A stretch of 64,000 nt of DNA, from contig CM059427.1 of the NCBI GenBank assembly GCA_030390025.1, positions 43,896,001 through 43,960,000 on the forward strand. The letters are read 5' to 3'. The DNA comes from Squalus acanthias (taxonomy: Eukaryota). The translations under genes were made by a program, and so were the position numbers. Below, piece after piece: positions 13,301 to 63,784 of this stretch. Each line of letters starts with the position of its first letter. Positions within the stretch are counted from its first letter, which is position 1. The notes beneath the pieces are model-generated. The model was not told where the DNA came from, made no database searches, and saw only the letters and a program-made list of their open reading frames with translations.

Positions 13301-16300
13301 TTGTCATCCTTTGTTGGTTTCTGAAACTCTCCCAATCCTCAGGCTTACCAGTATTCTTCGCAACATTATAAGCTTCTTCTTTCAATCTAATGCTATCCTT
13401 AACTTCTTTAGTTAGCCATGGATGGATCACTTTTTCTGTGGAATTTTTGTTTTTCAATCGAATGTATTTTTGTTGAGAATTATGAAATATTTCTTTAAAT
13501 GCCAGCCACTGCTTATCTACCGCCATACCTTTTAATCTATTTTTCCAATCTACCTTAGCTAACTCGCCCCTCATACCTATGTACTTGGCTTTATTTAGGT
13601 TTAAGACTTTAGTTTCAGACTTTGGCAAGTCACTCTCAAACGTAATGTGAAATTCTATCATATTATGATCACTCTGCCCCAGAGGATACTTTATTATGAG
13701 ATGGCTAATTACACAATGCAAGATCTAAAATAGCCTGTTCCCTGGTTGGTTCCATGATGTATTGTTCTAGGAAACTGTCCCGAATGCATTCCATGAACTC
13801 ATCCTCCAGACTACCTTTAACTTCTTGCTATTTCTTTTGTTGATTGCTCTTTTCTGACTGCTTATTTTCAATTAGTAAAATTCTCATCCTCATGTTTTAA
13901 TGCCTTCATGACCTCACCCCTCCCTATCTCTGTAACATCCACCAGCCCTACAACCCTCCCAAAACTCTGCATTTCTCAAATTCTTGTCTCTTGTGCATCC
14001 TTCACTCCCTTCAACCCACCATTTGTAGCTATGTGTTCGGTCATACAGGCCCTATGGAATTACCTCTCTAAACCCCTCCACCACTTCTCTTCCTTTAAGT
14101 CCCTCCTTAAAACCCACATCTTTCACCAAGTTTTTGATCACCCCTCCTAATATCTCTTTCTTTGACTCTGTGTCCATTTTTTCTGATTATGCATCTTCAA
14201 AGCGTCTTGGGACAATTTTCCAATGTTAAAGGCGCAATAGAAACACATGTTGTTATTATCAGCACTGGGAGGGGTGGGGGAAACACTGCAGAAGGGGGTG
14301 TTCTAGAAAAACTGGGACAATTCCTGGGATTTATGAACAAGTGGAAAGGGGCCCTGGGAGTATTTTGGGAGGGGTCCCAGGGTCTGGGAGCTTTAGGGGA
14401 AGTCCTGGGATCAGGTAGCACTGGTATTATGGTCTAAGGGTGAGCACTGAGAGGAATATTTGGGGGGAAGGGGGAATGAAGTCTTGGGTGAGGGGGTCTG
14501 GGATGTACGATTTGGAAACATTGAGAGTACCAAAGTCTGGCAGTATTGGGGCAAGGTGTAGATGCCTTGCAAGGAGGATGGGCCAGGTGAATGTGACCCA
14601 AACTGCCCTTGGCCTATTTTGGAACATCAGGCGCCAACCTTCCACCATGTTCCTGTCTGTCAGCCTCCTCTCTGACCCACCCAGAATTCCTTTTGCATCA
14701 ACACTTTCTCGATAATCAGACAGTTCCTGTTTCTGCCCTTTCGCATTGTTTGATAATCTAGTATAAAAATCAATGTTTTAGGTTTAGTACGGAAGTTTGT
14801 TCACCAGAAAACAGAGCTGAATATTTACAGGTATAAATTACATGGTATAGTGCAGGTAATAAGGTATAGAACCATAGAGTTATACAGCACAGAAAGAGGC
14901 CCTTCGGCCCATCGTGTCTGCGCCGGCCATCAAGCCCTATCTATTCTAATCCCATTTTCCAGCACTTGGTCCGTAGCCTTGTATGCTATGGCGTTTCAAG
15001 TGCTCATCTAAATGCTTCTTGAATGTTGTGAGGGTTCCTGCCTCTACCACCCTTTCAGGCAGTGAGTTCCAGATTCCAACCACCCTCTGGGTGAAAAGGT
15101 TTTTCCTCAAATCCCCACTAAACCTCCTGCCCCTTACCTTGAAACTATGCCCCCTGGTTATTGACCCTTCTACTAAGGGGAAAAGTTCCTTTCTATCTAC
15201 CCTATCTATGCCCCTCATAATTTTGTACACCTCAATCAGGTCCCCCCTCAGCCTTCTCTGCTCTAAGGAAAACAACCCCAGCCTGTCCAGTCTCTCTTCA
15301 TAGCTGAAACGCTCCAGCCCAGGTAACATCCTGGTGAATCTCCTTTGCACCCTCTCTAATGCAATCACATCCTTCCTATAGTGTGGCGACCAGAACTGCA
15401 CACAGTATTCCAGCTGTGGCCTAACTAGCGTTTTGTACAGTTCCATCATAACCTCCCTGCTCTTATATTCTATGCCTTGTCTAATGAAGGCAAGTATCCC
15501 ATATGCCTTTTTAACCACCTTATCTACCTGTCCTGCTGCCTTCAGGGATCTATGTACATGCACACCAAGGTCCCTCTGATCCTCTGTCCTTCCTAGGGTC
15601 CTACCATTTATTGTGTATTCCCTTGCCTTGTTAGTCCTCCCAAAATGCATCACCTCACACTTTTCAGGGTTAAATTCAGTAAAACAAATTCCTGCAGTAA
15701 CTATACCTAGTTGTTGACATTCATCTGCTACAGTTTGACCAGCAGCTTCTAAAATCGCTTTGGACACACCTGAAATGAAATGTGTAAATGAAATGGTTAA
15801 TTTATAAGAGCATAGAATAATTCTTTAAGTTATAATTGCTGATTTTAATTTATCCATTTCACCAATCATACTTGTTACTACCAAACAAAATGCATATAAA
15901 TTGGTGCCTGTTTATTTAAACCCAATTAAGTGTCTCTAGTAAATTAATTCTGATAGTAAATAGGGTGGTGTTGTATCATAAATGCAAAATCTTTTTTCTT
16001 TCTTTCTATTGTATCTCTTTTTTTATCTTTGTAGTACAATATATTGTGATTATGTAATGGTTACTACTGCTTTACTGGTGAAACACTATCTCAGCTCTGT
16101 TATATTTTGGTGTGTAGAATCCATACCTAAGTTAAAGATTAGGGGGGAAAAATTTGGTTGCTTTGCGCCTCCCTAAGAGGGCGCTAATGGGGTGCAAAGA
16201 AACTAGCACCCGGGCGCGGTGCCGCCAACGCCTCCCACGAAATTCAGCGGAAAGTTAGCGGCGGTGGTAACCATTAGCGCCCTGTGGCGCTGCGCCGCCG

Positions 16301-19300
16301 GCGATGACGTCATCGCCATGTGCAGCGCCCTGCTTACGCCTTGGCCGTGATCTGCGGTAGCGCCCCCTGACTTACCGCCAGACGCTATGTCCGACGGAAT
16401 CAGGGGTGCCTCTCTGCGGCCGGGGCGGCGCTAGTTAAAGGGGAGGTGGCGGGCGGCCATTTTTATTGCTGGCTGCCTGCCAGCACCTGCCCCCGTTGCT
16501 GTCCCCGGCCCCTGTGAAGCCCCCCTCGTGGGGTGCCGGCTGCTCTCCGTGAGCCCGGCACTCCTCGAGTGCCAGGCTCGTTTGTCGGCACTCCCGATCC
16601 CTGGTAGCCCAGCTGGGCGCCGGGATGAGCTACGCCAGGCCCTCCCCTTTAATAAGGGGAGGAAGGCCTGCAGTACGCGGCACACAGCGCTGCGATATGG
16701 CCTTACAGCGTCCCAAGAGGGACGCGGGGCACTTCCAGTAGCGCCCCTCCTCCCTCTCGGGGAGCTACGTGGGAAAATTGGCTGCGGGGGTGCTGATTTT
16801 TCGGGGCACTAAAAGTAGCGCCCTTGCAAAGTTAGCGCCCCAAAGCGCCCCCTAGGAATTATATTCTGCTTCTCCAAATCACTTTTGAACATTGTGCTGA
16901 AATACCTGATTTTAGTGTGAAATTGTTATTTGTCGAATTGACAATGACATCAGTGGTCTCCTTTGTTATGTCTCCTGTTATTACTTGCAACAAAATTGGT
17001 CCTACTTGTATTTCAGCATGACCTGCGGTTGGTGAAGAAATTCTTCCAAACAAAGGTCCTGCAAAAAAAGTTTCAAAAATGTTTTGCTATTATAAATTAC
17101 TTCCGATGCCCTTCTCTTTTACTAAGGGAAGTATTACTCCTTAGAAATATGCAACAAAACATGCAGACTCATAGATGGAAAAATACTAAGGATCTATAAC
17201 CAATCAAATAAACATAAATGCCTACTCTCAGACACCTTGCTGTTTTACTCCATGTCCAAGCAATAGGATTTCCTCCTTTGATGATTAAACACCATGTGAA
17301 AAACAGAACTGACTCATACATCAACTTGTATATTTCTAGTTCTTGAAAGACTGCGGGGTCTGTCATCAGAACAGGACTGGAGTGGGGGATGATGCTGAGG
17401 CAGGGATACTGGAAGGTCTAGAATTAGGGGCAGAAGAGCAGCAGATGGGACTTCATTCTGGCAGGAAGAGCAGCAGGATTGGCACATGGATGAATAGGTC
17501 AAGCAGGACCAAAAACTGGGGAAATGGGCTTGAGAGCCGGAGGTACTCCAGGTCAAGGTTGAGGCCAAGAACGATCAGGAAAGTGTGGGGCCTCGGCTAC
17601 GTTGTGGCTTCTGAGACTTGTACTCTGCTTGCTTGGTTGTGTTGCACCAGTCTCACAGTTCAATTACGCTCTCTGCATATGCAGTGTGATGAAGGCTGGA
17701 ACACGCAGTGGCTTGCGGGAATTGTACAGTGATTGTTTTGCTCAGGACATTAAGCCGCAGCTGGATGGGATGGGCTGTGAAATACTGGGGGTGGTGTTCC
17801 TGAATAGAGAATATCCATGAGGCCTGGAGAGGTTTGTCAGGCTATCCATTTGTGGGTGGGGGATAAAAACTGTTGGGGCTGGATTTTTCCAACCTCGGCG
17901 GGTCCGGGGCGGGCGACGTCCGTGGCATGTGGGGACCTGGCATCTGTCTCGATCCCGGCCTCCAACAAGAATTTACGATGATGGGGCTTGTTAAGCCCGC
18001 CCTGCGAGGTTCCCGGCCAATTAGTAGGAAGCAGGTCTGATGACGTCATTTGATGACACGTCATCAGCCGGTTTCCTTATAGGGGCCATGTCCAAATTGA
18101 TTTTGACAGTTCTGCTGTCAGTGTCCTGCAGCATTGAGGTGCTGCAAACACTGACAAGCACTGCACAAAGGTGCACGGCTGCACCCAGGAGCTCCCTGGA
18201 CTCCCTCCATATGCTTATGGAGGGAGTCACAGCACGCAGGGAGGTTCTCTTCCCTTCCAATGGGCGGAAGACACCTCCCCAGGACACCAACGCAGTCTAG
18301 TTGCACATTGCACAGGAGGACACCAGCAGGGATGTCATCAGGAGGACCTGGCTGTAGTGGCGCAAACCTTTCAATGATCTCAGTAGATCACGAAACGTTA
18401 CTGCAAAGCCACACTCAACCTCATCCTCCTGTTCCACTCATCACATCCCCATCACTCTGCCTTCTCTACCCTACTCCTGCACATCCTTACTCACACCAAC
18501 TTACCTTACATCTCCACCCATCCCTCTCTATCTACGTTATCACTCCCCCATCTCATTAGCCACCCGTCACACTCACCCTCATCCTTGTCCAATCATTCAA
18601 ACTAACAACACACAAGGTAGGCACTTGTGTGCTTTATCCAATGTTCATGTAAAGTGTATGTTAATGTGTTGTCAAGCATTGAAATCCTTATTGTCACCAC
18701 TATGCCTTCTTGGACAAAGGTGTGCACCTTTGAAAGTGTCTTAGTGAGTTCCAGTGAATGGTGAGACATAACGTCACCCCCCAATGGTGATAAGTGTGAA
18801 AGGAATGACATGGTCATTGTATGGATGCTTTATGGTGCTGGTGTGGGGTGGTGCCAACCTGGTGCATCATGTGGTAGCCAGGGTGTTCAGTGTTAAGTGA
18901 AGTAAATCTGGACATGGTGAGGCCATCGCTGGCGTCCCATCGCTGGCGTCCCAGGCAGCAATATGCACGGGTGATGATGCCCTTTGTCCAGTGCAGCATC
19001 AGTTGATTGCGGAGAAGGTTGGTGTGGATGTTGGTGCTGCTGGTGTGTCCGGTGATGCTGGTGTTGGGGCTGATCGTGTTGGGATTCTGAGGACCAAGGT
19101 GAGATTTTTTCAAGGGCACCGATGCTGATGGAATAGATGGCAGGTGAGGTTGAGATGACAGAAGTAATCTGTCAATGTTGAGATAGGTTGTTCCAAGGAG
19201 GTGACAGTGGATAGAGAAATTACTCCAAACACTTTAAAAGTGCATAAAGCTCAAAAGTAGGTTCCAAATACTAAAGGCTGAAGCTTCTGAGATTGGAAAG

Positions 19301-22300
19301 TGACCAGCTGTAAAATGGTAGCTTTTATACCACTTTTGCAGCTGTCACCTATTGAAAGAAATGGAGAGTTGTTCAGAACCCGACATACTTACCTGGCGTA
19401 ATCCCCAAGCGATGGGAACCTCGTGGAAACTTGGGGAAATGCTTTGTTCCTGGTAAAATGGTGATTAAATAGCTTTAAACACCCTCTTAACTTGCATAAT
19501 TGTATGACCCGCCACTTAGTGCCGTGTCTGCAAAGCGCAGGCAGAACTGGCAGTAGGGAAACTCACAAGGAGGCGGGTTTAGAGCGGGATACCGCCCCAC
19601 TTTCAATCCTTTTGGATTTTGACAGCGGACCCGCCTCCGAACCCGCCCTCTGAGCGCCGGCAAAATTCAGCCCTTGGAGTGATTGGAAGATGGATGGATA
19701 AGTACATGAGCAAATTTAAGATTTTTTTTCCTGAATTTTCTTATGTGTTTATCTTATAATTGTTTATTAGGTTTATAATGCAATATTGAAGAGCTGTGCT
19801 GGGGGCCGTACCCTGGAGAATCCTTTGTTGGTGTAATGCGATTCTGGAGACTTCTTTTGGTGGAATATGATTCGAAAAAATTAGGGAGAAAGTTGAATGT
19901 GGGAAGAAAGGTTTTGTGTGATATTACTAGTGAGTAGAAAAAGTTGAAAGTAATCAAAGGAGCAGTGGCAGAGATAAAAACAACAGCGCCCAAGGCCCGA
20001 GACCAGAGGCGAGAGCGGGACTGGAGGAGCAGCGGCAGAGATAAAAACTAGCGGACGGACCTGTGAGGGGGGGGGGAAAGAAAAATAATCAAAGTATGAT
20101 GTCACAGGAAAACAGGTAAGTGATTAGTTGGTGAGTATTTCTCTTTTTCTCTAAACTAGGGCATTGGTTTAAATTAAGAGCCGTGATTATAGATTAAAAA
20201 CTATACATGGATAATTAAGTGATATTTCAAAACTTACAAATTTAATTAGTTAAATAAAATGCAATAGAGATGGCAGGGCAGGTGATGTGTTGCAGCTGTA
20301 GCATGTGGGAGCTGGTGGACACCAGTGTGATCCACGGCGACCACATCTGCAGTCAGTGTCTGCAGCTCGAGGAACTTCGGCTCAGAGTTGATGAGCTGGA
20401 GTCCGAGTTTCAGACACTGTGATACATCAGGGAGGAGAAGGGTTACCTGGACACTTTGTTCCAGGAGGCAGTCACACCCCTTAGGCCCAAATTTGAAGTA
20501 TTTATCCTATGTTAGAAATCAGGGGTGTTCAAAATGTATATGGTTTTGCGGATAAAACTGTATTTACATGATTAGAACTACAGACAGAAAGTCTCTTAGA
20601 CTAGTATTAGAATAATTAGATAGATGTGTAGAATCTGCCTGTGTTTTGGTTCCCTGCGGATGTTATAGCATTCTGCAGTGTGACGGTCATAAATAATCTT
20701 GTTTTCAAGTTAGGATTTCAACCTTGTTTCTGTTTCTCTAATTTGACCCACCAAGGCCCAACGTTATATTTCTTCCATTTCTGCTAATAACCATATTATA
20801 ATGCTAAGTTAGGATTTTGACTTTGTTTAACAAAACTACTTTAAAATGCATAAGTTAACCAGTGTATGAGAATAGAATAGATCTTTGGTAATTTAATGAT
20901 TCATTCCATAGTACAATAGTTTGATAATGAAAGAGTTAGTTTTGCATAGCTAAAGCTGCATGAACAGCCTGAACCTAAATAACTGATAACAAGTAGAACG
21001 AACATCAGATGGCCGAGAATGGCATGTCCGACTCCAAACTAGGGAGGATAGGGACAAGAGAGATAAGACACGAATTCCAAAGGAAGAACCTTCAGAAAGA
21101 TTAATCATTAAGACAATTTAATGAGGTAATCAGACCCCCTTTTGGGGAAGGCTTTCATTCAAGAATCCAGACAAAGAATCTGATGCCCTATTGGGTGATG
21201 AGGTTTATGGGGAACCTCGATAGGTTAAATGGTCTTGTCAATTACTTGGCCTCAGGCCCACCCCTAAAAAGAGAATAAAAATGACACCCTGAGTGGTTGT
21301 CCACACAGACGGTGGAGGGGAGAGCCAAAGAGAAGTTGGGCTGGTCGAACGCTCTTTTGAGAGTGATCCCACGCTCACCATCGAAGGCCCTAGAGAGAGA
21401 GGCTGGAAGCCAGAGAACTGTTCACGCACGCCAGCCGTCTGTCCGATCGGGACCGGTACCAGCTACTTGTCACGGTCGTATGTTTTTGCTGTATAACTAG
21501 CATGTTATATTCCGTCTTAAACTCTGATTAAACACAATGGGGGGAAAATTCGGTTGCTTTGCGCCTCCCGTTAGCGCCCTAAGAGGGCGCTAATGAGGTG
21601 CAAAGTAACTAGTGCCCGGACACGGCGATGTTTGCGCCACTCACGAAATTGACCAGACATATTGCGGCGGCGCTAAACACTACCGCCACGATCTCCTGCG
21701 CCCGCAGATCGTGACGTCAGTCGAGCGTGCAACGCCCCCGTAGTGCCCCGGACCGGATATTGAGTGGCGCCCCTTGCCTTACCGCCTGCCGCTAGCAACG
21801 ACAGGTTGAAGGGAGCATTTTGTAGTCGGGAAGGGACTGGCGGGGGGGGCGCTATTTAAAGGCGACCGCTTCCTGCCTTTTTTGTCGGCGACATTTTTGC
21901 ACCACGCATTCTGAGAGAGAGAGACTTCTGGTTCATTTTGATTTCACATTCCTTGTATCGATTTAGAAGAGACTGTGGGGGCTGCACTCTGAGCTCTTTC
22001 CCTGGGCCTCTCCATTGTTCTTTCCAGCAGATTTGATGTACAGGTCTCTCCAGGCCGAGATTCACGGTTGCAATGAGCAGGGTGTGGATGGAGAGCAAGA
22101 TCGACCCTCCCCTTTAAGAACTGGCCGGCACCATTGTGTGTGTGTTCCATTGCTGACTGACATCACATGAGCTTCGCCAGCGCTCTGAGGTAGTGCCTCG
22201 CTCCTCGGCGTTAGCGCCTTAAGAGAGGTGTGTAGCGTGTGATTTAGCGCTCCAATCATCTCCAGGGGCGATAGAAGCCAAGTTTGCAGTCGGAGGCGAT

Positions 22301-28300: not shown

Positions 28301-31300
28301 AAGGCGCGATTGCATTATTGTAATTTGTAATATAGGCAATAACTGACTATAGATGATGGATATCATAACTAGCTATCGTATTTCATGAAAGAGCATGAGA
28401 GACATAGGATGAGACAAAAGGTTTATAGAAAATATAGATCAGTTATGCAATTCATCTTGCAAATAGCAAGTTAAATTTACTACTGAAAAATGTGAAGTAT
28501 CCCACATTGGTCAGAAATGTGCATCATAAGCATACAATGAATAGAACTGAATTTGCAGATGGAGTTTCAGAATGGAACTGGATTGATGGTACATTCATGA
28601 CATTCAATGCCTAGATCACACTCGGGTGTTTTGTATTCAATTTTGGTCACAGCACTTGAAGGTTAGTAGAGACAAAACCATCAGTGGCATTCAAAGGCAC
28701 CTGGATGCTATAATGTGAGAGTTAGGCATAATAGATGAATAAGCTCAATGTGTCAAATGACCTTTTTACATTATTGCATTTTCTGATGTTCTTATAGGAT
28801 GGAAAGAGAAATTGAAAGCTAGAAGTAACACAGGGACTGCCTATCAGACAAGGTTTTATTTTGCATCCTGTCCAGGAGAGCAACTGAAGTTTTGTAAGTG
28901 TCTCCCCAGATATGGAACAGTACTCAAGGCCTAGATCAAACTGATATTTGTATGAAAATTACAAAGCAAAATCAACAAAAAAGTAGTTTAATCAAATCAA
29001 GCTGGTTAAGCTAAAATTATTCAATAAAAAATATATAATTAATGTCTAAATATTTCCACTTCAAAATATATTTTTGTTACCCTAAAGAACATACAAATTA
29101 GTCATCAATTTTGAGGATCAACATTTTGCGTTACTAGAAATAATCTACTAATGGAGCAGACCTGAAAATAAAGCTGATCAATAACAGATCCATACCTGAA
29201 CAGTAGGACCATCTTCAGGATGCACCACGAAGTGAACATTCTTAAGAAACTTAGGATACCTCTTACTGCTGAACTTTAGAACTTCCTCAAACATCATTCT
29301 TGCAACAAGATCCTTCGGAAAACACAAGTTGCCAGTTCCAATTGCTGGGAATGCGATGGAAACCAGCTGGAGTGCTTCCGTGTTCTTCAGACAATCCTTG
29401 ATTATCCTTCGTAACAGCTGGAAAGTAATTTCACACCAGGTGTTTCTATCCAATAATATAATTGTTCAAAAACAGGAATTGCTGCATTGACACTGACATT
29501 AGAATGTATATTACCTTTTCCGCAGCTCCATTTCCTTGATCCCACTGAGGAGCAACGACATGAAACACTGCAGCACAGTCAAGATTACATCCATTTGTTT
29601 CATAAATCCTTCCTGTAGCAGGTTTTTTACTTTGCTTTTTGTCCCACAGTAACTGTTGGAGCTGTGGGCCAGCTTTCTGTAATATTGCTCGGGAAACTGC
29701 GCCGTTGTTCAGATCTAGATCTATTCCAACGACATTTACAATGACAGCAGCCTGGAAATAGAAAAACAATTATAATAAAGGTAAAATACATTTTTTGGAA
29801 TTACTGACAATCTCAAATAAATGAGTTACAGTGAAGACTTACTGTTACATCTTGAATATTTCCTTTGACAACACTGACATTTAGACCTTCTTTTGTTTGA
29901 GCTTCATGCAGACAATTTATGCTTCTTCTATTTGCCATGCTGTGAAAGTCAAGCCTTTCTGGCTGCGCAGGCGAACTACTTAAAAATTCACCTAATATTT
30001 TCTGAACAGCATCTGAAACAGCTCGAACAGTTTTTTCATCACAGTTTACCAAGTGGATCTCTTTCAGTGTACTGCCTTGATGTGAATCCACACAGTGTTC
30101 TCTGATTGATCTGACAATTATTTCTGCACACAAATGCAATGGAAATCCAAATATTCCTGAACTAATAGCAGGGATTGCTATAGACGTAAAATTATGGGAT
30201 TCTGCGAGATACAGACTCTGCTTCACGGCCCTTCTTAAGCATTTCTTAGCTGTGTCTGCATCAGTATTCATCCATCTTGGTCCAACTGCATGAATCACTT
30301 TGGAACATGGTAGGTTACCAGCATCAGTAATAACTGCATCACCAGGCATAAGAGATCCTTGATTGTCAACAATCCTATTACATTCAATTTGCAACACTGG
30401 ACCAGCTGCTTCTAATAGTGCTCCTGCAAGGCCACTGATGTGCTTTAGATCTTCATTTGCTGCACTGACAACCACATCAACACGATGCTTGCACAGATCT
30501 CCTCTAGAAACAGCAACTAAAGGCCCACCAGGCAATTGTACTTTACAGTGTGCCTGGTGCAATTCACTATTATCTCCAAACACACAATGCTCAATAGGTC
30601 TTAGAACACAATTAAATTTATGCATTGCAGTAGCAATATATATATCTTGATTTTCTTTGAAAGCCTTCTTTGTTCCTGGTTGAGTAATTTTCAAGACTGA
30701 ACTAATTACTGTGGAAGCTGCATCTGATAGTAAATTCTCCACTTGACAGACATTCTCTTGGGGACCTGATACTAAAACACTTGCATCATTTGCCATGTTA
30801 TTAACATTTATTTTCACACCAATTGGTGGTGTTTGGAAAATGTCAATGTTCTTAACAGCCATCAAAAACTGCAGACACCAGCAGATTTAAATGGAATGTT
30901 TTTTTGAATGGTTGTGTTTTTCTTGACAAAATCCTGAAGCATTTCAAACACTTCAATGACAGCACCAGAATAGCCAGAGATAATAATCTGCCCATGTCCA
31001 TCAAGTGGTATTTCTTCAATTTCAACCTGTTTACTGGAAGAATTCAGCCTTGCGTCCGATTTGTCTTTTAGTCGTGTCCATTCACTCTTTCTGATGACAC
31101 TTAGATCTTCTATCTCAATACACTTGAAATCGAGATGTTTTTTGATTTGTTTTTCTGCTGCACATAAAGAACTATCTGTATTTCCCATCAGCAGAACACA
31201 GTTATCCTTAATGTCATACACAGCATTGATTCCATTTGATGTGAACAAGCAGCAAGAAACTTCATTGTGGTCTACTCTTTGTAGAAAACTAGTAAGATGA

Positions 31301-34300
31301 GGGTTCAGATCAGCTCGCTTTTGTTTCATTTGAACAACTTCTTCCAATATATTACTTTTGGCAACATCAACATCTGATGGCAAACCATGTAATGTTATAC
31401 ATCCTGCAGTTGAGTTGTATTTCATGCTGAGGTTTGGAAACAGTTTGGACAAATGCTTCTCAAGACCACCACTCAATAATAGATTATATACAGCAGGATT
31501 AATAGACACTGTCTGAGTCACACTTTGCTTCTCCCGTTCCAATTTTGCCATGGCACCATCCATAAATGATTTGAATACTCGTTGTACAGTATCTACACTG
31601 TCAGATTCTCCGGACAATATCACCTTTCCCTTTGAAAAGTTTGGTATAACAGCAACATTTTGGTTCAAATACTGATCAAGATCTCCCTGAATTATTTCCC
31701 AGATTTGTTGATTCACATCATTTTCAATAGCTTTGTACTTTGACACGATATGAGTTAAATTTCCTGAAGCTTCCCTTTTCCAATTCTTTGCAAGTTTTTC
31801 GAATGAACCCTCATGTCTTGAAAAAGTTGGAGATATTTTGATCGTGTTTGATTGGTCTGATTCTGGTAATGCAATGTCACAGTTGTGTACTGCCATTTTG
31901 TCATTGATTTCCGCAATTCGCCTTTTATCATTTTTAAGAAACTGCAAGATGTAGGGATCAATATCGACAGTGAAGGGATCTGGCATTTTCACAACTGGTC
32001 TTTTGTTCCCATATAAAGCTGAACCCAATGACTTGTAGTAGGGATAGACATGGATTGGTGTTTTATCAATGGTGTGTGTTTTAGCCAGAATGGTATCCAG
32101 AACTGTAAATAAAACAAAAAGAAAATTTTATGTTCCAGAAACAATAGGTTAAATGGCCTACATTTTAAATCAAAGACAATTGTTTAATACATCAGTGCTT
32201 TCTAATATGCAAATCTTACCTTTAGAATTTTCAAAAGAAACAACAGCTGCGCTGTCCTCAGGTGTTATTTCAATGGCTGTCACAATTCCACCTCCATTTT
32301 TAGCCGTTTCAAAGTACAGTGTTAAGAAATCTTCACTGGTATTAGGAGGCAGGTTCTCCACTCTTACACTCTTCGTTATGTCTAGTTGCTTCACTACAAT
32401 TTTTTGGCCACTCAAGGTCTTTGTGGAACACTTTTGAATGAATTCAGCGAGGTCTAATAGTTAAACACAAGAAATGGGAAAACATATTATTGTTTTAAAA
32501 AATAAAAATTTTGGAGTCACAGTGACAATTTAGTAGTCTATCTCCAGGCTTTGAATCAACAAAGGGGAAGAGAAATTAGTACAGAAAGACAGTAAGGATG
32601 GTGTAACAGTACAAGATAAAAATGTCCATACTGAGGGCTTGACTTTGAAACACATGAACACCAAAGTTGATATCTGGAACCCCGTCCCACAATTTTTCCA
32701 CAGTTCTGATGAAAGGTCATCCACCTGAAACATTGAGCTCGATTTTGCCAGGCCCGAGGAGGCAGGATTGGAGGCGTGTGAGGTGTTAAAATTGCAGAAA
32801 ATGGCGGGCGGCTCCGATCCCGCCTCCAGCCCACCTCCGAGCAATTTTCCCAGAATCGGGGTTTCAGACCCTGTTTCCATCCCGCCTCCAAGAGGCGGGA
32901 TAGGCCCTTAAGGCCCTTAACAACCAGTTAATTGCCTCTATAATCCCATTTTGAGAGGCCTTTCTGATTTTAACACATTTCCCCCGTCCTGCATGTCTCC
33001 TCTGGAACACGCCAGTTAATCCTGGCGGCCTCACAAGTGGATTGCTTACTAACAGCTGCAGATGGGATACGGAGTGGAGCTATAGTAGGGGATGATGCAC
33101 AGCCAAATAGAGGAAAAAACAAGTCAGCCTGGAAGGCAGAGCAAATATGTAACGGCACAAGGGAGTATGGCAAGGCTGGATGGCATTTATTTTAATGCAA
33201 GGAGTCTTGCGAGTAAGGCAGATGAATTGAAGCTGTTGATGAACACATGGGAGTATGATATTGTTGCTATCACAGAGACATGGTTGAGGGAGGGGCAGGA
33301 TTGGCAGCTCAATATTCCGGGGTATAGAATCTTCAGGCGAGACAGAGGGGGGTGTAAAAGAGGAGGGGGTGTCGCAATATTAATCAAGGAGTCAATTACT
33401 GCTGGAAGGAGGGATGATATCTTAGCAGGTTCCTCTAATGAGGCCATATGGGTAGAACTTAAAAACAAAAAGGGGGCAAGCACTTTGCTGGGAGTGTACT
33501 ATAGGCCCCCAAACAGTCAGGGCGAGATAGAAGAACAGATATGTAGGCAAATCTCAGAGAAGTGTAGAAATAATAGGGTAATAAGAGTAGGGGATTTCAA
33601 CTTCTCCAATATTAACTGGGATAGTCAGAGTGTGAAAGGCTTAGAGGGTGCGGAATTCTTAAAATGCATCCAGGAGATCTTTTTGAGCCAGCATGTAGAA
33701 AGTCCTACAAGAGAGGGGGCGGTACTGGACCTAATTCTAGGGAATGTAGCCGGGCAAGTGGTAGATGTATCAGTAGGAGAGCATTTTGGTGACAGTGACC
33801 ATAATTCGGTGAGATTTAAGGTAGTCATGGAAAAGGACAAAAATGGACCGGAATTAAAGGTTCTAAATTGGGGGAAGGCAGGATCTGGCCAAAGTGGACT
33901 GGGATCAGCTACTTGTAGGAAAATCCACATCAGAGCAATGGGAGTCTTTCAGAAAGGAAATAGAGAGAGTACAATGCCAACATGTTTCCGTAAAGGTCAA
34001 GGGTGGGACCAACAAGCCCAGGGAACCCTGGATGTCAAGAGATATACAAGAATGGATTTGGAAAAAAAGGGAGGCTTTTGGCAGATACAAAGGACTAAAA
34101 ACAGTGGAAGCCCTAGAGGAGTATAGAAAGTGCAGGGGGATACTTAAAAAACAAATTAGGAGAACGAAGAGGGTGCATGAAAAAACACTGGCGGGCAAAA
34201 TAAAGGAAAATCCCAAGGTGTTTTATAAGTATATTAAGGGCAAGAGGATAACCAGGGAAAGAGTAGGGCCCATTAGGGACCAAAGTGGCAATCTGTGTAG

Positions 34301-37300
34301 AGCCGGAAGATGTAGGTGAGGTTTTAAATGAATATTTTCATCTGTGTTCACTATGGAGAAGGATGATGTAGGCATAGAAATCAGGCAGGGGGATTGTGAT
34401 ATACTTGAACAAATTAGTATTGAGAGGGAGGAGGTACTAGCGGTTTTAGCGGGCTTAAAATTGGATAAATCCCCAGGCCCTGACGGGATGTATCCCAGGC
34501 TGCTGTGTGAGGCAAGGGAGGAGATTGCAGGGGCTCTGACACAAATTTTCAGAACCTTTCTGGCCACAGGGGAGGTGCCAGAGGACTGGAGAACAGCTAA
34601 CGTAGTACCACTGTTCAAGAAGGGTAGTAGGGATAAACCAGGGAATTACAGACCAGTGAGCCAAACATCAGTGGTAGGGAAATTATTGGAAAAAATTCTG
34701 AGGGACAGAATTAGTCTCCACTTGGAGAGGCAGGGATTAATCGGGGATAGTCAGCATGGCTTTGTCAGGGGGAGATCATGTCTGACCAATTTGATTGAAT
34801 TTTTCGAGGGGGTGACTAGGTGTGTGGTTGAGGGTAGTGCAGTTAATGTAGTCTACATGGACTTCAGTAAGGCTTTTGACAAAGTCCCACATGGGAGACT
34901 GGTCAAGAAGGTAAGAGCCCATGGGATCCAGGGCAATTTGGCACATTGGATCCAAAATTGGCTTAGTGGCAGGAGGCAGAGGGTGATGGTCGAAGGTTGT
35001 TTTTGTGACTGGAAGCCTGTGTCCAGTGGTGTACCGCAGGGATCGGTGCTGGGTCCTTTGCTGTTTGTAGTGTACATTAATGATTTAGATATGAATGTAG
35101 GAGGTATGATCAGTAAGTTCGCAGATGACACGAAAATTGGTGGAGTGGTGAATAGCAAGTAGGGAAGCCTCAGGCTACAGGACGATATAGATGGGATGGT
35201 TAGATGGGCAGAACAGTGGCAAATGGAATTTAACCCTGAAAAGTGTGAGGTGATGCATTTTGAGAGGACAAACAAGGCAAGGGAATACACAATGAATGGT
35301 AGGATCCTAGGAAGGACAGAGGATCAAAGGGACCTTGGTGTGCATGTACATAGATCCCTGAAGGCAGCAGGACAGGTAGATAAGGTGGTTAAAAAGGCAT
35401 ATGGGATACTTGCCTTCATTAGCCGAGGCATAGAATATAAGAGCAGGGAGGTTATGATGGAGTTGTACAAAACGCTAGTTAGGGCACAGCTGGAATACTG
35501 TGTGCAGTTCTGGTCGCCACACTATAGGAAGGATGTGATTGCATTGGAGAGGGTGCAGAGGAGATTCACCAGGATGTTACCTGGGCTGGAGCGTTTCAGC
35601 TATGAAGAGAGACTGGACAGGCTGGGGTTGTTTTCCTTGGAGCAGAGAAGGCTGAGGGGGGACCTGATTGAGGTGTACAAAATTATGAGGGGCATAGATA
35701 GGGTAGATAGAAAGGAACTTTTCCCCTTAGTAGAGGGGTCAATAACCAGGGGGCATAGTTTCAAGGTAAGGGGCAGGAGGTGTAGAGGGGATTTGAGGAA
35801 AAACTTTTTCACCCAGAGGGTGGTTGGAATCTGGAACTCACTGCCTGAATGGGTGGTAGAGGCAGTAACCCTCACAACATTCAAGAAGCATTTAGATGAG
35901 CACTTGAAACATCGTAGCATACAAGGCTACGGACCAAGTGCTGGAAAATGGGATTAGAATAGACAGGGCTTGATGGCCGGCGTGGACACGATGGGCCGAA
36001 GGGCCTCTTTCTGTGCTGTATAACTCTATGACTCCAAGATTAAAATGGAGTTTTCACCAATGATCATTTGCAGGTGGCAGAACTTTGTTGTCTCAGGTCT
36101 GGGGGAACTTTTAGCAGGCATACTCATTGTTGTGGAAGTTTGGAGCCTGACACCCATCTCCAGTGTGACCTCCTGGGAAACCCCTCTCCCCACCTTGACT
36201 GAGCGCTTCCTCAACTGAGGCATATACCAGAAGCATGGGAACCATTTATTTCCTTTCCTCCTGGACATCAGATTTGGACAAAGACCAGCCGCGGCAGCAG
36301 CAGAACCCCGAACAACAGCAGCACCAACAGCAGGAGCATCAACAGGAGTGCCAAGCTGCTAGTCACCCACCTGAAGCTGCACAGGCCAGAAGGCGCCAGC
36401 GCGTGACCACATTGCTGCCCGGGATGCAAGGGACGCACTCATCTTGGCCAGATTTGCTTAGCCTGCACAATCAAACACTTTTGCCTCGTACCTTCTTACC
36501 AGAGCATCGACAATGGACAAGAACCTGTGGATTCCTATCACTCTGACCACCATACTGACAATTGCAAGTCGCCCTAAGCCCTCAATGTGGAAGTCCCATT
36601 TGCGAGATGACACAGGCCACAACTTCAACAGTTTGCAATCAAATCTGTTTATCATCACATTACAAGGATGGCTTGTCAAAAAACAATACAACAGAACACC
36701 CAAGTGACTACCCTTGTGACTACTTGTGCTTTATCTTCCTCTTACGCGTGCTCCTACGTGGTGCTTCCCTGTGGCTTCAGCAGATGTGGAGGCCCCTTGC
36801 TCACTTTCTTGCTGCTCCTGTCTCGATACCTTTGGCGGGCGTCCTCTGGGGTTGCGAGCCTGTGAGGGCTCAGCAACAGTCTGCTGCTCCTGCGGCTGTG
36901 CAGGGGCTGAGACGCCCATCTCAGTTGGGTGAGGACTCTGGTGGGGCTCTGACCGAGGGCTTTGCAGTGGCATGGTCGTGTGAGCGCTTGGAGAGGAGCC
37001 CCCACTTCCTTGTTGTCTGCCACCAACATCCCTCTCATGGGTCAGCCCCACTTCAGAGCTAGCAAGTGTCTTGACAGCACCTTGCTGCACTTCAGGGGGG
37101 CCATGAGGACCGGTTTCTGCACTGGAAGTCCTACTCCAGAGGACTTCCATGAAGGTCTGGTTTCTATGCTTAATAGCTGACCATCGCTCCTCAAGAGATG
37201 CAAGTCTATTCTGAACAATGACCATGTTTTCAACACTCTGGCTACTTAGCTCCTCCATGGCCGTAGCCATCCTCTCCTCTACCGTAGCCATCCATTCCAC

Positions 37301-40300
37301 GGAGGTTGCCATCCTTTCCGCGGTGATGCGTTCATGCGCCAATGTCTCCACAAAGGCTCTGCTCATGTTCGCGATGGACTCCTCCATTTGCTCCACACTC
37401 GCAGTGACCCTGGAGACAAAACCTGCCAGAGACTCCTGCACCTGTTCCTGGAGTTCCAGCATCGCTCTCCTTCTGGTCTGACCCGGAGGCACAGGTTCGA
37501 CATGCAGCTGAGCCGAGCTGGGAGAGTCCTGCGCCCTCCGATGAGGACTCTCCACTGCTGTCCCTGTCTCCACCATCTGCTGATGCTCACTTGTGAGCTG
37601 TGATACACCAGGTGCCAACACTACTCTATCTCGCAAAGGTCCCACCGAGGTGTGAGTGTCTGCGCTGTTGCTGGGTGCGCTGAATTCTGCTGACGCTGCG
37701 CCCTCAGAGGTTGCAGCTTCCTCTGAGGAGTCTTGAGGCTCAGGCTGTTCCTCCTGGACACTGGGGATAGGGGCTGGCGATGGTCCTGTGGGGGAGTAAA
37801 GGAAAGAGTTAGAGATGTGAGGTAAAGGTTGCATGCACATTGAATTGTGCAGATGATCATAAGTCAATCTGTTAGAGCATCAGAATCATTATCAGTCACT
37901 CATGCAATGTCAATGAGAGAGATGCCAAACTATTCTGTCACCAGCTTGCTGTGATGCGCCCGTCTGTCCGTCCCCCACTTGCAAATCTTCCTCGACACCG
38001 GTGATTTCCAGGGCTTCCTCCTCCGAGGTGGTGAGCTGGGCTACTGAGGGTGGCCCTCCTCCTGTCCTCGCTCTTTCCCTCTTATTGTGGGCTCTCTTTT
38101 CCTGCAATGAGGGACACAAGTGGAGTTTGAGTGGGAATGAAGGAGTGAGTGTAGAGAATCCATAGCATAGATGCTTAGGAGGAGTAAATTGTTGTCATTG
38201 CATCACAGTGATAGGGAGTGTGAGGGCTGCATGGTCAAATAGTTAAGTGAATGTGACCATAGAGAGGGAATGGGTAAGGGTGCAGGGATGTAAGTGTCAA
38301 GTAGGATGTGGAGGAAGAGTTTGGCAAAGCAGAGTGTTGGTGAGGAGAGGCGATGGGGATCAGATTGAGGGAGATGGGAAAGTCATACTCACTTTTCCTG
38401 TGCGGAGAAGGTCATGAAACCTCTTCCTGCACTGCAGCCAGGTTCTGCGGCACATAGAGATTGAGTTGACCTCCTGGACCACTTGCATCCACACAGCTTT
38501 AGTCTGCTGGGGAGGCTTTTTCCTCCCTGAGGAAGGGAAGAGCACCTCCTTATTTGATCTTGCTCCCTCCACCAGAGCTTGGAGGGAGGCCTCATCGAAC
38601 CTTGGAGCACACTTTGGCCTACTGCTGGACATAGTTGCTGAATGAAGCGATCACAACAACGGGCATAAAGTTTAAAGTCTCCAGAAGAAGCAAGTCTGCT
38701 TGCAGGCCTTAAATCCAGCAGCATTGATGATGTCATCGGAGGCGACTTTCTGTATGAAAAGACTCATTGGGCCAGGGGTTTCCACACGCTGGAAATCAAG
38801 TGCCCAATTAGGGCAAAATCGCACTTTTTTCCCACTTCACATCGGAGTTGGGGTCCTGACACGAAAACCAACTGACACGCCCCAGCCCGCCCACAATGGC
38901 AAAATCGAGCCAATTAACTCTGTTTCTTTCTCCAAGATGCTGTCTGACCTGCTGAGTATTTCCAGCGTTTTCTGTTTTTATTTCAGATTTCCAGCATCCG
39001 CAGTGCAGCAAACTCTTTCGTATCCGGCACCTGCTGGGCCGGGATGGTGCCGGTTGATGAAAATTTCCGGAAAACAGAGAGGTAGGCAATTTTTAACACA
39101 AAAAAAATAAAAACCACTGACTAGCTTGGCCACCACGGGAAACTTGGACTCGGAAAAATGAAAAATGGATGGATTCGGCAAGATTACCGGTTATCTATTT
39201 TGCCGGTTATTGAAGAATTCCGGATGATTAAGTGCCGTTTAAACAAGAATTTACTGTATTTTGCTTTTGCTTCTGTTGCCTAGGCCCTGAGCTCTGGAAT
39301 TCCCTGCCTAAACCTGTCCGCCTCGTTACCTCTCTTTCCTCCTTTAAGATGCTCCTTAAAACCTACCTCTTTGACTAAGCTTTTGGTCACCTGCCCTAAT
39401 TTATCCTTCTGTAGATCGGCGTCAAATTTTTTGTCTTAAAATACTCCTGTGCAGCGCCTTGGGACGTTTTACTACGTTAAAGGCACCATATAAATACAAG
39501 TTGTTGTAGTATGAGAATGCTATTTAATGGTAGGACCTCAAGTACGAAGGTCTCGGTTTTTTATGTACGCGACTTGCATTTTTGCATATAAGGGCTTGCG
39601 TTATTGCATAATCATATGCAGCCTACTCAATGGTTTTAACACATGCAGCTGACCCCAGTTCAAAAAATGTTGGACATCCCTCTGGTTGACTATTGATTAA
39701 TGAGGCACATGAATGACAGCCTTTTCAGTCAAGTTCTCTCCTTATCCTAGTGCCAGGCTCTAGCCTCCCCTTCCTTCCAAATCCAGGCCCAGCTCACACA
39801 TACAAATCCAACAAGATGACACACCCTAGCTCCCACCACCCAAAGACAGAGACAAGATCATTTCTATAAATCTTGGGGCTCCAAATCAGAAGTTTGTAAC
39901 CCAAGCCTGCCTCCAGGTCTCTTTAGCAGGTAAGAGAAAAAGGAGATGGAATAAATCATCCATGAAAAAAAGGACGAGACAGGCAGAGGCAGAGCCACAG
40001 TAAGATTCAGGCAAAGTGAGCGAGTGACATCAAAGGAGAGTAGGAAGGAGGAGAGAGAACGGGGAGGGGAAAACAAGGAGAGGGGGAGGAAGGGGTGGAC
40101 ACACATATGGATGGTAGTGCCAACACAGGCACAAAGAAGGAGAGAGGCAGAGAGAGACAGACACATACCATGTCAAGCCATGTCACAGCATTTTTTTTAT
40201 TTGTTCCTGGGATGTGGGCGTCACTGGCAAGGTCAGCATTTATTGCCCATCCCTAATTGCCCTTGAGAAGGTGGTGGTGAGCCGCCTTCTTGAACCACTG

Positions 40301-43300
40301 CAGTCCGTGTGGTGAAGGTTCTCCCATAGTGCTGTTAGGGAGGGAGTTCCAGGGTTTTGACCCAGCATTACATGGTACAATGCTCCTGACACTACAAAAC
40401 ACCTTGGGCTGGTTATTAACTCGGAGGCGGGGAGGGAGCGGGTCGAGGGCAGGGGGGTGGGGGTGTATTGAGGTTGGGAATTCCAGAAGAACAGGTTTCA
40501 CCTCAGGCCCTGCCGATTTTAATGGCAGGACTGGATTAACATTTTTTGTCTCCATTGCGCGGCTGCAGCCAGCCAGACAGAGAGGCTGGCTGGTGAGCGG
40601 GTAGGCCTTTGGCACCAGGCCACAGCCGGGGAGCGGAGAAGAGGGAGGGAGGGTTTGGGGAGGCTGGGAGGGCGAGGGGAGGAATATCGGGAGTCCTGAG
40701 ACAAGGGGGGAGATCGGAAGGATCGGAGGTGAGATTGGAGGCCTTGTGGAGGAGATCGAAAGCATCGGAGGGGTAGGTGTCCGATCGCGGGGGGTGGGTG
40801 AAGCAGGTAAGCTGGATCCGGCAGGTAAGTGGAAAGACTCTTAGCTCCTGGATCCAGCAGCCATGCCTCCCTTTAGCTGCCGGGTTAAATTTAAAATGGT
40901 GGTTAAATCTGAGGCTTTGAGCCTCATTATAATAATTAAATTGCCAACCCACCTCCTGTGAGAGGTTTAGTTGCCCACCACACCCCCCAAACCCTCCCCC
41001 CACCCCCCGTCCCGCCTCCGTTAAAACTGGAGTGGGCGGGTTGGAGTCGGGATTCAGATTTTTTAGATTTTTACTTCCCACCCAGCCCCAACCCGCCTGT
41101 TTTTTGGGGTTAAAATTGCCCCCTTGTCCTCCAACTTACTGTGAGCATTACCATAAGGTATCCATTTAGCGAGTATGTGTTTATAAGGTCATTTAAATTG
41201 TTCTAGCATTGAAATAAGCTTTTTTTAAAAAAAAACAGACATTTGCTGAATATTAATTCTTACCAGTGTTGGTTTTGAAAGTCACAACAGCAGCATTGAT
41301 TTCACTCAATTTTTCAATGCTGAAATCACCAGCTTCTTCAATTAATCCAGTGACATTTTCTACCAGTAGGTTCAACATGTCACACGTGATGTTTTCATTC
41401 AGATTTTGCAATACAACAGAAGAGGTTGGTGAAGGAACTTCATTCTTTTCATCTTGGAATTTCACCACTAATGGAACGTTCTCCACTGAATGGATTCCTT
41501 GGCTCAACACTGCCTGAGCATCTTAATAACAAGAATCACAATGTCAGCATATATAGTTAGGTGTGATGTTAGCATACAGACTTTGCTACTTCCCGCCCCT
41601 CAAACGATTATTTAATAGGCCGTATTTTCAGGTGCGTACGAGGTGTGTACACAGCCGTAGTGACCTCGCAAGTGCCGGTTTCAGGCATGCGAAGCATCCG
41701 CACGCAGGAAGCCTCCTATCGGAAATTACGGGCCAATATTGTTTGTAAAAATTCTGCGAAGCTGACATTTTAATACTTTCCAGATCACAAGGTATCCAGT
41801 TTTGATTACTTTGGGTATTTATTCTAACCAAAATAAGGAGATTATGATTTTTTTTCAATTTTTTATAGAGAAGGTGGTAAAATACAATCAGGATTGTAAT
41901 AAGAATCATGATAAACTTTTTGCTGAAGATTTAAAATCTTGATTTTGTTGCTATAACAGCGGCATTGCAATTATTAGCGGTAAAAAAGAAAACCAGGAAT
42001 GCTGGCAATTTAAAACATGCACAGAAAATACTGGAAATAAACAGAAGCTTGATCCACATCTGAACAAGAAAGATAGATTAACTTTTCAGGTGTCCGGATG
42101 AAGGGTTACATCTGAGATGTTAAACCTATCTTTTTCCTTCAAATGCTAATTGACCTGCTATCCGTCTCCATTATTTTCTGTTTATATTTCACCATAATAA
42201 TTTTTTACAACAACATTATGGGGGTGAAATTGGGTGCCTTTGCGCCTCCCGTTAGCACCCCCAGGGGACGCTAATGGGGCACATATGGCTTTGCGACCGG
42301 GCGCGGTGCTGACATCGACTCCTGCCATATTCGGCGGGAGTTTTGTGGCGGCACTACAGCGTTGCGCCCCGATCACCTTCGCCCGGAGATCGTGACGTCA
42401 TCGCCATGCGCATCGCCCCGGTAGCACCCCGGACCCGAAATTCGACCCGCCGGTTGAAAACACCGACAGCTGAAGGAGGCGTGCATCAGGCGGCCGGTCG
42501 CTTCAGGGGCGATGATTAAAGGCGAGGTGGCTGAGGTAAGTAAAAATAAAACTTAACTTTCTTGTTCCGCTTTTTTTCGCGGGTTTCTGCCCGCGATCGA
42601 TCAACCCAGCACTCTACTTGAGTGCTGGGCTGATCGCGCTGGATCGTGGCTGCCTTGGTGATCCAGGTAGGTATTTTTTAAATTACAGAGCCTGCAGCGA
42701 TGGCCCTTCCCTTTAAGGGAGGGAAGGAGCCTTTGAACGTGGTAGCGCTGCACAGCCCAGTGTGCAACGCTGCTGAAGTCTCTGCCCCGCTCTCCAACGT
42801 TAGCGCCCTAAGAAGGAAGTGGAACGCTTGATTTAGCGTTCCACTTCCCTCTCGGGGCGCTAAAACTCAATTTCGCGGTCGCCGGTGCTAAAGTTAGTGC
42901 CCAGGTGATGTTAGCGCCCCAAAATGGTCGATACCAAAATTTGCCCCCTATGACTTCCTTCTGAATTTTTTTTAATGAAAAAGTACTTTGCACTACAGCT
43001 AAGAATAGAAGATTTATTTATCTAAACCAGGGATACTCATTACATCTGTAAGTGTTAACAAGCATCTACTGCTGCTCTCAGTTCCATTCCTTGACCCTGA
43101 TATTGCTGCCGTCTAGATCCTGGCCCTACTCCCGATTTAAATCGCAACTCAATCCCCGGTGATAACCCTATCGCTCCATCCTCCCCATCTGTTGGCAGAT
43201 AACACCAAAGCCATGAGCAAAGGGCCCAACTGCCGACTGTGGGTCTCAAGCAAGTTGTGAAGTGGTGCTCTTCAACCCAGTGAATTGAAATGTGTCCAGT

Positions 43301-60869: not shown

Positions 60870-61375
60870 GTTCCTCAGAAGACTGTGCTTCACCCCTGAG
60901 GTTTTTGGAGAAATATGTCAACTGCTTGGTAAAAACCTGCACTCCATTTTCATCAGAACAGCATTGTTTGTACCAGTCAAGGTCACCTTGAATTTCTTTG
61001 CATCTGGATCCTTCCACGCAGCAATAGGTGATTCTTCTTTACATTAGGCAGGTAGCTGCTCACCACTGCATCAAGGTCACTAAAGCTCTATTCAGGAGGG
61101 CTGCACAATTCATACTTCTGCCAATAAAAGCAAACAAATAGGGAAAGAGAAAGAGAGCTATCCAGTTCTACAAACTAACAGGATTCTCACAGGCGAAAGG
61201 AGCAAGTAACAGAACTCTCTTTAAAATCCCATTTAAAAGCCTCTGTTTTATGAATAGGAAAGGCTTTTACTCTCTTAATATTCAGCTGAACTGCAATGAA
61301 AATGATCGTATCCTGTGCCTCCACGCCAGATACCTATGAAGCTGCTCTGATGCTTTCATCATGCAACAATCCACC
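60870..61375 (+). pseudogene. Degenerate HARBI1-like Harbinger transposase fragment (possible N-terminal piece at about 59880-59990)
   Basis: LRRLCFTPEVFGEICQLL..VKVTLNFFASGSF..GFSQAKGA..MNRKGFYSLNIQL..ARY motifs with stops and frameshifts. Confidence 0.8.
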
Positions 61376-63784
61376 ATGCAAGGATTCATCACAGATGCCA
61401 CTTACCTCAAGATAATAACAGTGTGCCTGCATGAATGCAACCCTCTCCAATGTCAGTACAGGGAGGAGCTGCTGGTCTGGGCCTGGTAGGCACAGGATGC
61501 TTAAGCGACATGACAACAGAAGCAGGTCCTGGAGGGATATCACTTCACTGAGGTTGAGTGCCAGTCCTTGAGGGCTCTATCATTACAGTCCCACCTCATT
61601 AGAGCTAACTGTCAGTGCATGATACTCAGGAAGTAGCTATGATTTCTTTATTCAAACAAATCAGGATACCTGCACTACTGAGCCAGCGCACTGATAGGAT
61701 AGCTGATAGGAAACCAGGGTACTTGCTTCAGTCTTAGCTCCAGTTTGGCATCCGAGAACAGAGGCTAAAAACAGGTACAATGAAGCCTCAGGGCACTCCC
61801 AGAATAATTGAGACCAATATTTTCAAGAAAGGTCTCTGCTGTCAGTGAAACTGTAGGTGATTTATTAACCGTGAACTGTGAATGATCTGTGTGTAATGTT
61901 TGATAGAATCATTCTGTTTGACACATAATTATCTTTGCACTGTTTTAATGTTTTGAGTTTCTTGAAAATTATATTTAATTAAAAACAGAAAGGCATGCAT
62001 TTAAATATGACAGTAAGATTAACTAAACCTCTCACCAGTTCTGTTTCATTTCTACACATTAGGATCTACCAAGTAGGTATATTAAGCTGTTAAAAATGTT
62101 TCATACAAGTAAGGCATAAACCTTTAAACAATTACACATGTTTTTAATCCAAAGAAAAATGTAAAATTACATTTTTGATTTTCTGAGTGACAGTCATGAA
62201 TAAGAATTATGAGTAAAAAGAATTTAACTTTCTTTCAGTGGCTCATTTGAATATTTGTAAGTAATCAATGACATTTAAAGAATTTAATATAATAAACATT
62301 CAGCAATTTTTATTTTTAGAATGATTGAAAATCAGTTGAAGCTCAGATGCCTCCTCCAGGCCTGGAATATTTAGTAAAGCCCGAAGCCAGTGGGAATCCA
62401 GCAGCACTCACCTACATTAGACTTTCTGATCTCTACTGCCCCATTAGTGCCCTGATTGAAGCATCTTCAAATAAAATTAGAGCAATGGGCAGGGACATCT
62501 GCCCATCAGCAACATGGGATTCTATTGGCCTTACTACTGCATGCTTATCCATTTACAACATTCCCCACCTTAACACATATTTGTTTTCTCTTTGTGTAAG
62601 GGGCTCCCAAGATGAAGAAGCTAACATCAGAAATGAGCATGAATCTGCCCTAACAGAACAGTAAATGTCAAGCATTCCACACCCACAAGTACCAGGACAA
62701 ATACATCCATCGCTGGTGACCAGATAGAGTCAAGAGGGTTCACCTGGTGATGCTCTGAGCACAAATGAGCAGGACCAAGAGGCAATGGCAGCAGGCGAGC
62801 ATTAACAAGAGGCAGGAAGAGCTAGGGTTAGACAGCAGTTTCCTGTGAGTCCTACTAATTTAAACCTTACAGGGGATGCATGAGCTGCTCTTCATGCATT
62901 CTTTTGAGAATCTGTACATGTGGAATTGCAGAGAATTTGCAGCCGTGTTGCCCCAACATCAGTGCAGGGATGCAAGATGTTTTGGGAATCTGCACGTCAC
63001 CAAGAAACGAGCAGGAACTCCACAGCGATCTGCACAGGAGCAGATCCCAGTTTTGCTAATAAGATGTGGAGCTTCAATTTTCAAAAGACTCTCACTCTGG
63101 GGTTCAAGAAAGCTAAGGGGATTGTTTATTTAGGACCTCGCTAGCCAGTTTCACACTCTAAGTGGCAGTCAGGGTCCGAGAACATAGTTCCTCTTCCTCT
63201 TCTAAATTCAGGACAGCTAAGTAATGTGGTTGTTTATGAGCTTGGCAGCTGGCGGTGGCAAGAATGTTGTCACTGGAGTTCTGTCTGGGAGCAGTCAGTA
63301 AACAATGGAAAAAATGCACAAGTGATCAGACTGGCATATCTGATTACATCAGTGTAAACTTTTCTAATTGCCATACCATGAAAAATGTCCTTACGGCCTT
63401 TGCCTGCCAATCTAGTACCAATCTGTCAGCAGTTTATTCTGAGGGCCTGTGCCCATTATGAACTGGCTCGAGACTGCCCAAGGTAATTTCACATTAGACA
63501 CCTACAAAAAGCAAAGAGAGAAGGTCACCCCAGTCTGATCGGGATTTGAATCTGATGTTTAGATATGAAACAAGAGTGTGTTAGCGCTGCCATCCAGCCC
63601 TTTCGATGGCTATTGAGATTGATCTACCCAAATTAAAAATTATGATTTCAGCATGGAAATTCTACGGTATGGCCTGAAAGAGTTTCAGAAAGTTGAATTT
63701 CAATTTTAATTTAGTTACATGGGTATAAAGTGGACATAATAAGCAATTGAAATAAAGTGGCATTTTCTATCTTAAACGATTCAG

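Follow-up and report, generated by a model that had tools for sequence, protein, structure and literature searches.

The DNA considered here, a window of 64,000 nucleotides from Squalus acanthias (GCA_030390025.1, contig CM059427.1, forward-strand positions 43,896,001 to 43,960,000; coordinates below are those of the window), carries at 32735..38912 a Harbinger element that lacks the core of its transposase gene and retains a second gene, encoding a Myb/SANT protein. The element lies between the RRM2 and RRM3 exons of a minus-strand gene that Pfam and PDB matches identify as PARP14-like. A preliminary description, made from the sequence alone, had placed it in intron 4 of PARP14: the host gene is confirmed, but the number 4 presumably follows human PARP14 exon numbering. 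The ends are as described there. A 3-bp target site duplication (TSD), ATT, is read on both flanks (32732..32734 and 38913..38915), and inverted-repeat comparison defines terminal inverted repeats (TIRs) of 16 bp at 32735..32750 (plus strand) and 38897..38912 (minus strand), each with one mismatch to the 16-bp family TIR, GGGCTCGATTTTGCCA, and sharing a perfect 14-bp inverted core (32737-32750 / 38897-38910). Of the family elements with both ends, 47/68 have an exact 3-bp TSD and 59/68 one with at most one mismatch. The short TIRs, the 3-bp TSD, the DDE_Tnp_4 transposase of the autonomous form and the Myb/SANT second gene are those of PIF/Harbinger transposons. Around the TSD, the family flanks (L002-L120) also display a palindromic preference that extends over about 15 bp of the target, and many insertions of the family lie in other repeats, CR1 tails included.

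The Myb gene is on the minus strand and has three exons: exon 1 (38393..38632, 240 nt), which contains the Myb/SANT (trihelix) DNA-binding domain (Pfam Myb_DNA-bind_5, PF13873, E 1e-11), exon 2 (37942..38101, 160 nt) and exon 3, which extends to the stop codon of the family (36720..37785, stop at 36720-36722). They are separated by GT..AG introns of 291 nt (intron 1, 38102..38392) and 156 nt (intron 2, 37786..37941). In the window copy the frame of exon 3 stops early, at 36731, so that its exons of 240, 160 and 1055 nt join into a frame of 484 amino acids without a stop, exactly as first described. The gene had also been called fully intact, and this it is not. The majority sequence of 29 other copies retrieved by a DNA search encodes 488 amino acids and has a basic C-terminal tail resembling a nuclear localisation signal. 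At 36767-36769 the window reads three C, against four in 136/138 other scored copies. This one-base deletion at codon 473/474, by which a coding-strand G4 becomes G3, leaves the first 473 of 488 codons open and replaces the basic tail. The extra C is present in 4/4 public sequencing runs compared.

The splicing evidence for this gene model is partial. Of the public runs searched, none recorded as RNA contains the stretch, and nine are presumed to be RNA. Run X7, presumed to be RNA and from another organism, contains a joint (38100-38392) that skips 291 nt with CT..AC ends and corresponds to intron 1 (38393/38101 in the preliminary description). It occurs in two contigs, with 29 bases on the shorter side, and in one of four runs of other organisms; it supports the gene model of the family, not transcription of the window locus. 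No joint for intron 2 (37942/37785) was seen among the joints listed for seven of the nine presumed RNA runs and one large run of unknown kind, in all eight of which intronic read cover resembles exonic cover; this is not evidence of silence.

The 5′, transposase-side arm of the element (32735..33061, plus strand, joined directly to 36032 in copies free of the nested CR1) contains GGCGGG/CCCGCC subterminal repeats which are candidate Myb sites. On the same strand, the transposase is represented by a Q-rich N-terminal remnant of 56 codons (36235..36402), equivalent to codons 1-56 of an autonomous 412-amino-acid transposase, and by the C-terminal 17 codons and stop (36408..36461). Comparison with autonomous copies places the deletion junction between them at 36397..36407, at an imperfect CCAGC.C microhomology from which about 1,007 nt are gone. 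The loss of the DDE core is thus borne out, but the two halves are joined out of frame and are not the fusion that had been proposed. An intron as the source of the gap was ruled out, there being no GT..AG ends on either strand. The autonomous parent is about 4.2 kb long, against 3.2 kb for the window-type deleted element, and carries two genes, one of them for the 412-amino-acid transposase (L238; DDE_Tnp_4, PF13359, E 1.4e-36). Seven of 20 copies chosen by their transposase have an open transposase frame of at least 411 codons. The best DDE_Tnp_4 matches were rejected as parents since they come from a separate Harbinger family (L031-L060), younger than this one and indeed very young, whose ends are different and in which many near-identical transposase frames, of about 390 codons, are open. 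A first-look search gave 63,886 DDE_Tnp_4 candidates genome-wide, and the window itself holds a decayed transposase fragment of yet another Harbinger family at 60,877-61,408.

The same deletion recurs throughout the genome. Exact junction-pattern matches number 1,751 for the deleted and 460 for the intact form, with none for the backwards control patterns. As these patterns recover 44/94 known deleted and 17/25 known intact copies, simple arithmetic gives estimates of about 3,700 deleted and 680 intact junctions. Among 60 loci picked by exon 1 alone, 49 have the same deletion, five a full transposase and six are uninformative; the junction is also present in 25/29 other loci picked by the 5′ arm. 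The deleted copies have distinct TSDs and so moved after the deletion. Next to the junction, 125/132 deleted copies have a C and 53/58 autonomous copies a G, and because this base separates the two forms it points to a single origin of the deletion in this family. One of the alternatives initially put forward, a class of elements that lack the transposase, keep Myb and are likely served by transposase in trans, is therefore real in this genome: the core is absent while both ends and the Myb gene are kept, the elements are multi-copy, and autonomous parents provide a cognate transposase source. Such Myb-only elements belong to what has been termed the solo-ORF type (ORF, open reading frame). 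The Myb gene is not always preserved within it. A near-full Myb frame is present in 28/40 copies chosen by their junction and absent within the fetched stretch in the other 12, and 3/40 have an additional exon-3 deletion in common. Because derivatives with a broken or missing Myb were amplified as well, the Myb gene is not required in cis for amplification.

A second Harbinger family has followed a similar course. Its members, of about 1.8 kb and at least 40 in number, have neither a transposase core nor Myb exons 2 and 3, and are 72% identical to the first family near the junction. One of these doubly deleted elements occupies window positions 17,800-19,500; its Myb gene is reduced to exon 1 (18151-18387, 51% identity), and its transposase N-terminus is joined to the C-terminal helix at the homologous junction. 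In the second family the transposase deletion took place at the homologous microhomology, with the crossover on the other side of a mismatch compared to the first. Left and right of the junction, and right up to it, the flanks of this family agree with those of its own autonomous relative, L201 (the one such relative compared). The differently placed crossover and the two-sided match to L201 favour an independent origin of this deletion. One near-junction base is common to both families (C in 20/23 scored second-family copies), and a very short conversion tract between the families could also have been the source of the junction. That two families were deleted at the same point suggests a repair hot spot. 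The complementary solo-ORF class also occurs: L204 (795-2446) and L205 (495-2218) have kept the transposase gene and lost Myb exons 2-3.

The preliminary description had seen a hint of purifying selection on the Myb gene of the window, and one of its two readings was an incipient domestication, in which the protein would serve the host as do NAIF1 and the MSANTD proteins. The 473 open codons of 488, the intact DNA-binding exon and splice sites, and the sense orientation within the host gene are all compatible with this. Divergence and codon substitutions were compared for the window copy and the 29 others (40 candidates scored, 89-95% identity). The window copy differs from the family majority by 2.31% overall and by 1.57% at non-CpG positions, and its Myb frame has accumulated 24 amino-acid-changing and 7 silent substitutions, an ω (dN/dS) of 1.41. 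Pooled over the 30 copies ω is 0.94, and 0.96-0.98 for private changes. A pooled ω of 0.58 for the Myb domain was discarded as an indication of selection on inserted copies, being due to shared subfamily variants. A dN/dS near 1 and a low divergence are what the preliminary description itself had named as speaking against its proposal. Neither is an open frame exceptional: lesion-free Myb frames were found in 6/29 (two of these without a stop codon), 7/48 and 2/28 copies of three samples, with a Poisson expectation of 0.21 for the first, so that such a frame would be common by chance in this family, at 7-21% of copies. Two near-identical duplicates (L008 and L071) were removed before the Poisson, haplotype and tree counts.

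The nested CR1 had provided a further argument, its lesions having been contrasted with an older but clean Myb frame. This 5′-truncated long interspersed element (LINE), on the plus strand at 33062..36031 with ends established from CR1-free copies, does include endonuclease and reverse transcriptase domains, and its ORF2 has four frameshifts and one stop. Its non-CpG divergence from the majority of 20 copies, 1.56%, is practically that of the Harbinger (1.57%), and for this reason the CR1 appears to be about as old as its host element. Five lesions in 2.9 kb of CR1 against one in 1.47 kb of Myb frame do not differ significantly (P=0.35), and the hint of purifying selection disappears. A second, shorter CR1 3′ end resembling the nested one lies at 14,949-15,824, within a different host-gene intron.

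The Myb-like domain of NAIF1 and MSANTD1-4 is likewise of Harbinger origin, but according to PMC9392472 each of these genes exists as a single copy, keeps its synteny across vertebrates and evolves under negative selection, whereas the window copy is frameshifted, still bounded by its TIRs and TSD, and one of thousands; it is neither a single-copy non-transposon gene nor an intact frame with ω below 1. Domestication of this copy is refuted, and we give it next to no probability. The window copy is young, neutrally decaying and frameshifted, and bears no sign of host adoption.

A different effect on the host may also be envisaged. The exons flanking the element, both on the minus strand, encode RRM2 (41264..41522, 5′ end approximate; Pfam RRM_PARP14_2, with its donor) and, downstream, RRM3 (32220..32453; Pfam RRM_PARP14_3, with splice ends). 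The RRM2 donor (41264) and the acceptor of Myb exon 3 (37785) are both in phase 1 and on the minus strand, and would join in frame to give a truncated RRM-acidic-coiled-coil chimera using the poly(A) signal of the element, an AATAAA 3′ of the Myb stop on the same strand. The join is a prediction, and any sense intronic element with an acceptor matches the phase one time in three; we consider such an exon trap most improbable. The host gene has an irregularity of its own, in that its large exon (exon 6, with KH and macro domains) shifts frame by one base at about 30,870-30,886 on the minus strand, reflecting either an assembly error or a broken host allele.

How the Myb gene fared in the deleted lineages before they gave rise to the present copies is a separate question, which was approached using regional parsimony trees of 183 copies, 58 of them autonomous. 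At least five deleted and several autonomous subfamilies are mosaics of shuffled haplotype blocks; the Myb gene of deleted subfamily delA, for example, is that of the autonomous autoA. The blocks comprising the 3′ arm with exon 1 and the Myb 3′ untranslated region are about three times as diverse as the neighbouring introns, in deleted and autonomous copies alike, suggesting that modules have been swapped with more distant families.

Several observations argue against a history of neutral decay alone. The Myb frame is open in the majority sequences of all five deleted subfamilies, substitutions and majority deletions having been checked; one of the five has a stop in the transposase remnant. 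On internal branches with deleted copies only, exon 1 shows 12 nonsynonymous and 26 synonymous changes and no stops (ω 0.16 by parsimony), or 9 and 21 (ω 0.14) in the junction-chosen subset, while the transposase remnant on deleted-only branches shows 20 nonsynonymous and 4 synonymous changes and 3 stops (Fisher P=2e-5 for the comparison with exon 1). For the exon-1 block, the nearest neighbour of a deleted copy is also deleted in 29/33 cases and donors are mostly not seen, and the exon 1 tree includes a clade of 28 deleted copies with no member among the 58 autonomous ones. Finally, the frameshift of the window copy could be an assembly error at the homopolymer, conceivable because the large host exon also carries a one-base frameshift.

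These features might indicate a helper lineage, in which Myb-only master copies were selected to keep a Myb protein that binds their own arm and recruits a foreign transposase, the window copy being a dead descendant. In addition to the open subfamily majorities and the contrast between a constrained exon 1 (ω 0.11-0.16) and a drifting transposase remnant, this would account for the inheritance of exon 1 and the adjacent arm as one block, for the correlation of junction and exon-1 distances among deleted copies (rho 0.5) and for the retention of a near-full Myb gene in most junction-chosen copies, and would be in keeping with the splicing of intron 1 in the run of a relative. Exon 3 is nevertheless near neutral on the same deleted-only branches (ω 0.61-0.92), with 2 stops against about 5 expected, a difference that is not significant, and derivatives with a broken or missing Myb were amplified too. 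Moreover, translation in the cytoplasm leaves a protein with no evident means of favouring the copy that encodes it. A further objection comes from the exon-1 haplotypes, whose divergence greatly exceeds that of the junction region: in two sets of 40 junction-chosen copies, four-fold-site diversity in exon 1 reaches 21.7% among the deleted ones, compared to 3.2% for junction-linked DNA and 4.6% for exon 3. Since the exon-1 variants are some seven times more diverged than the DNA around the deletion, they are probably older than it, and the constraint was probably imported by recombination. On internal branches that lead solely to autonomous copies exon 1 has an ω of 0.11, and on those that lead to both forms 0.14. 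Its terminal-branch ω of 0.5-0.75 was not retained as a sign of selection, as it was probably lowered by the choice of the 60 loci on exon-1 protein similarity and by rare subfamilies sampled once. We therefore regard a helper lineage as unlikely, although not negligible, and similarly doubt that the Myb of the deleted element itself contributed to its transposition. A variant, in which transposase-less lineages repeatedly captured working modules of exon 1 and arm from related families and were selected to keep them, as long-lived helpers whose protein and binding sites would co-evolve as a swappable unit with the transposase borrowed, seems to us about as doubtful as the helper lineage.

The window copy is, in our view, probably a frameshifted, neutrally decaying 3.2-kb non-autonomous Harbinger derived from the 4.2-kb two-gene parent and likely mobilised in trans. 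Its history might be reconstructed as follows. Microhomology-mediated repair would have removed 1 kb of the transposase core, once in the family. The deleted element kept both arms and could be cut and pasted by the family transposase supplied by intact relatives, and the shorter form would have out-copied its parent by about 4-5 to 1, probably helped by its length. Template switching may then have placed the deletion on many older modules of Myb exon 1 and terminal arm, whose constraint would have built up for the most part in autonomous lineages. The element would have entered the PARP14-like intron and received the CR1 at approximately the same time, and decay would have followed.

In its general organisation the family resembles autonomous Harbingers of the Harbinger3_DR type as presented in PMC9392472 and PMC9179366, with convergent transposase and Myb-like genes, short TIRs and a 3-bp TSD, but the window copy has no DDE core and the TSDs of the family vary within a palindromic preference instead of conforming to a fixed TWA. 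In the autonomous elements, binding of the ends and import of the transposase fall to the Myb-like protein, and neither of the two proteins is dispensable (PMC9392472). Solo-ORF Myb-only Harbingers have already been published, from sea kraits and a nematode, and the window family belongs to that class. Among the Harbinger-Snek variants of sea kraits, multi-copy Myb-only elements are described and transposase-only variants are commoner (2,263; PMC8437027), whereas here there are about four Myb-only elements for each full one. In Caenorhabditis inopinata, MADF/Myb-only derivatives of Harbinger-1M_cIno with TIRs and a 3-bp TSD have similarly expanded, with a transposase inferred to act in trans; PMC13668399 portrays an active family with one intact DDE locus and mostly short miniature inverted-repeat elements, and cites an effect of length on transposition that favours shorter elements. 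The window family differs in having hundreds of two-gene copies, one shared junction, mosaic haplotypes and, in the samples taken, no near-identical recent copies. The term "purifying" is absent from the text of PMC8437027, as are dN/dS terms from that of PMC13668399, and nothing on selection in Myb-only Harbingers appeared in the titles and abstract openings searched, a scope lying outside most subscription papers and Repbase. According to PMC9179366, no Harbingers were found in the elephant shark, and an examination of other cartilaginous fish was called for; a Harbinger expansion is reported from a newt (PMC5741667).

The window copy itself is of no biological weight, other than as an illustration of how a young repeat with a near-open, spliced frame can mimic a host gene. 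The family to which it belongs provides a data set for a question raised by the sea krait and nematode studies, whether Myb-only Harbingers keep their Myb gene because it is useful. It includes its own internal control, a drifting transposase remnant beside a constrained DNA-binding exon, and its thousands of copies allow a full census of the donors.

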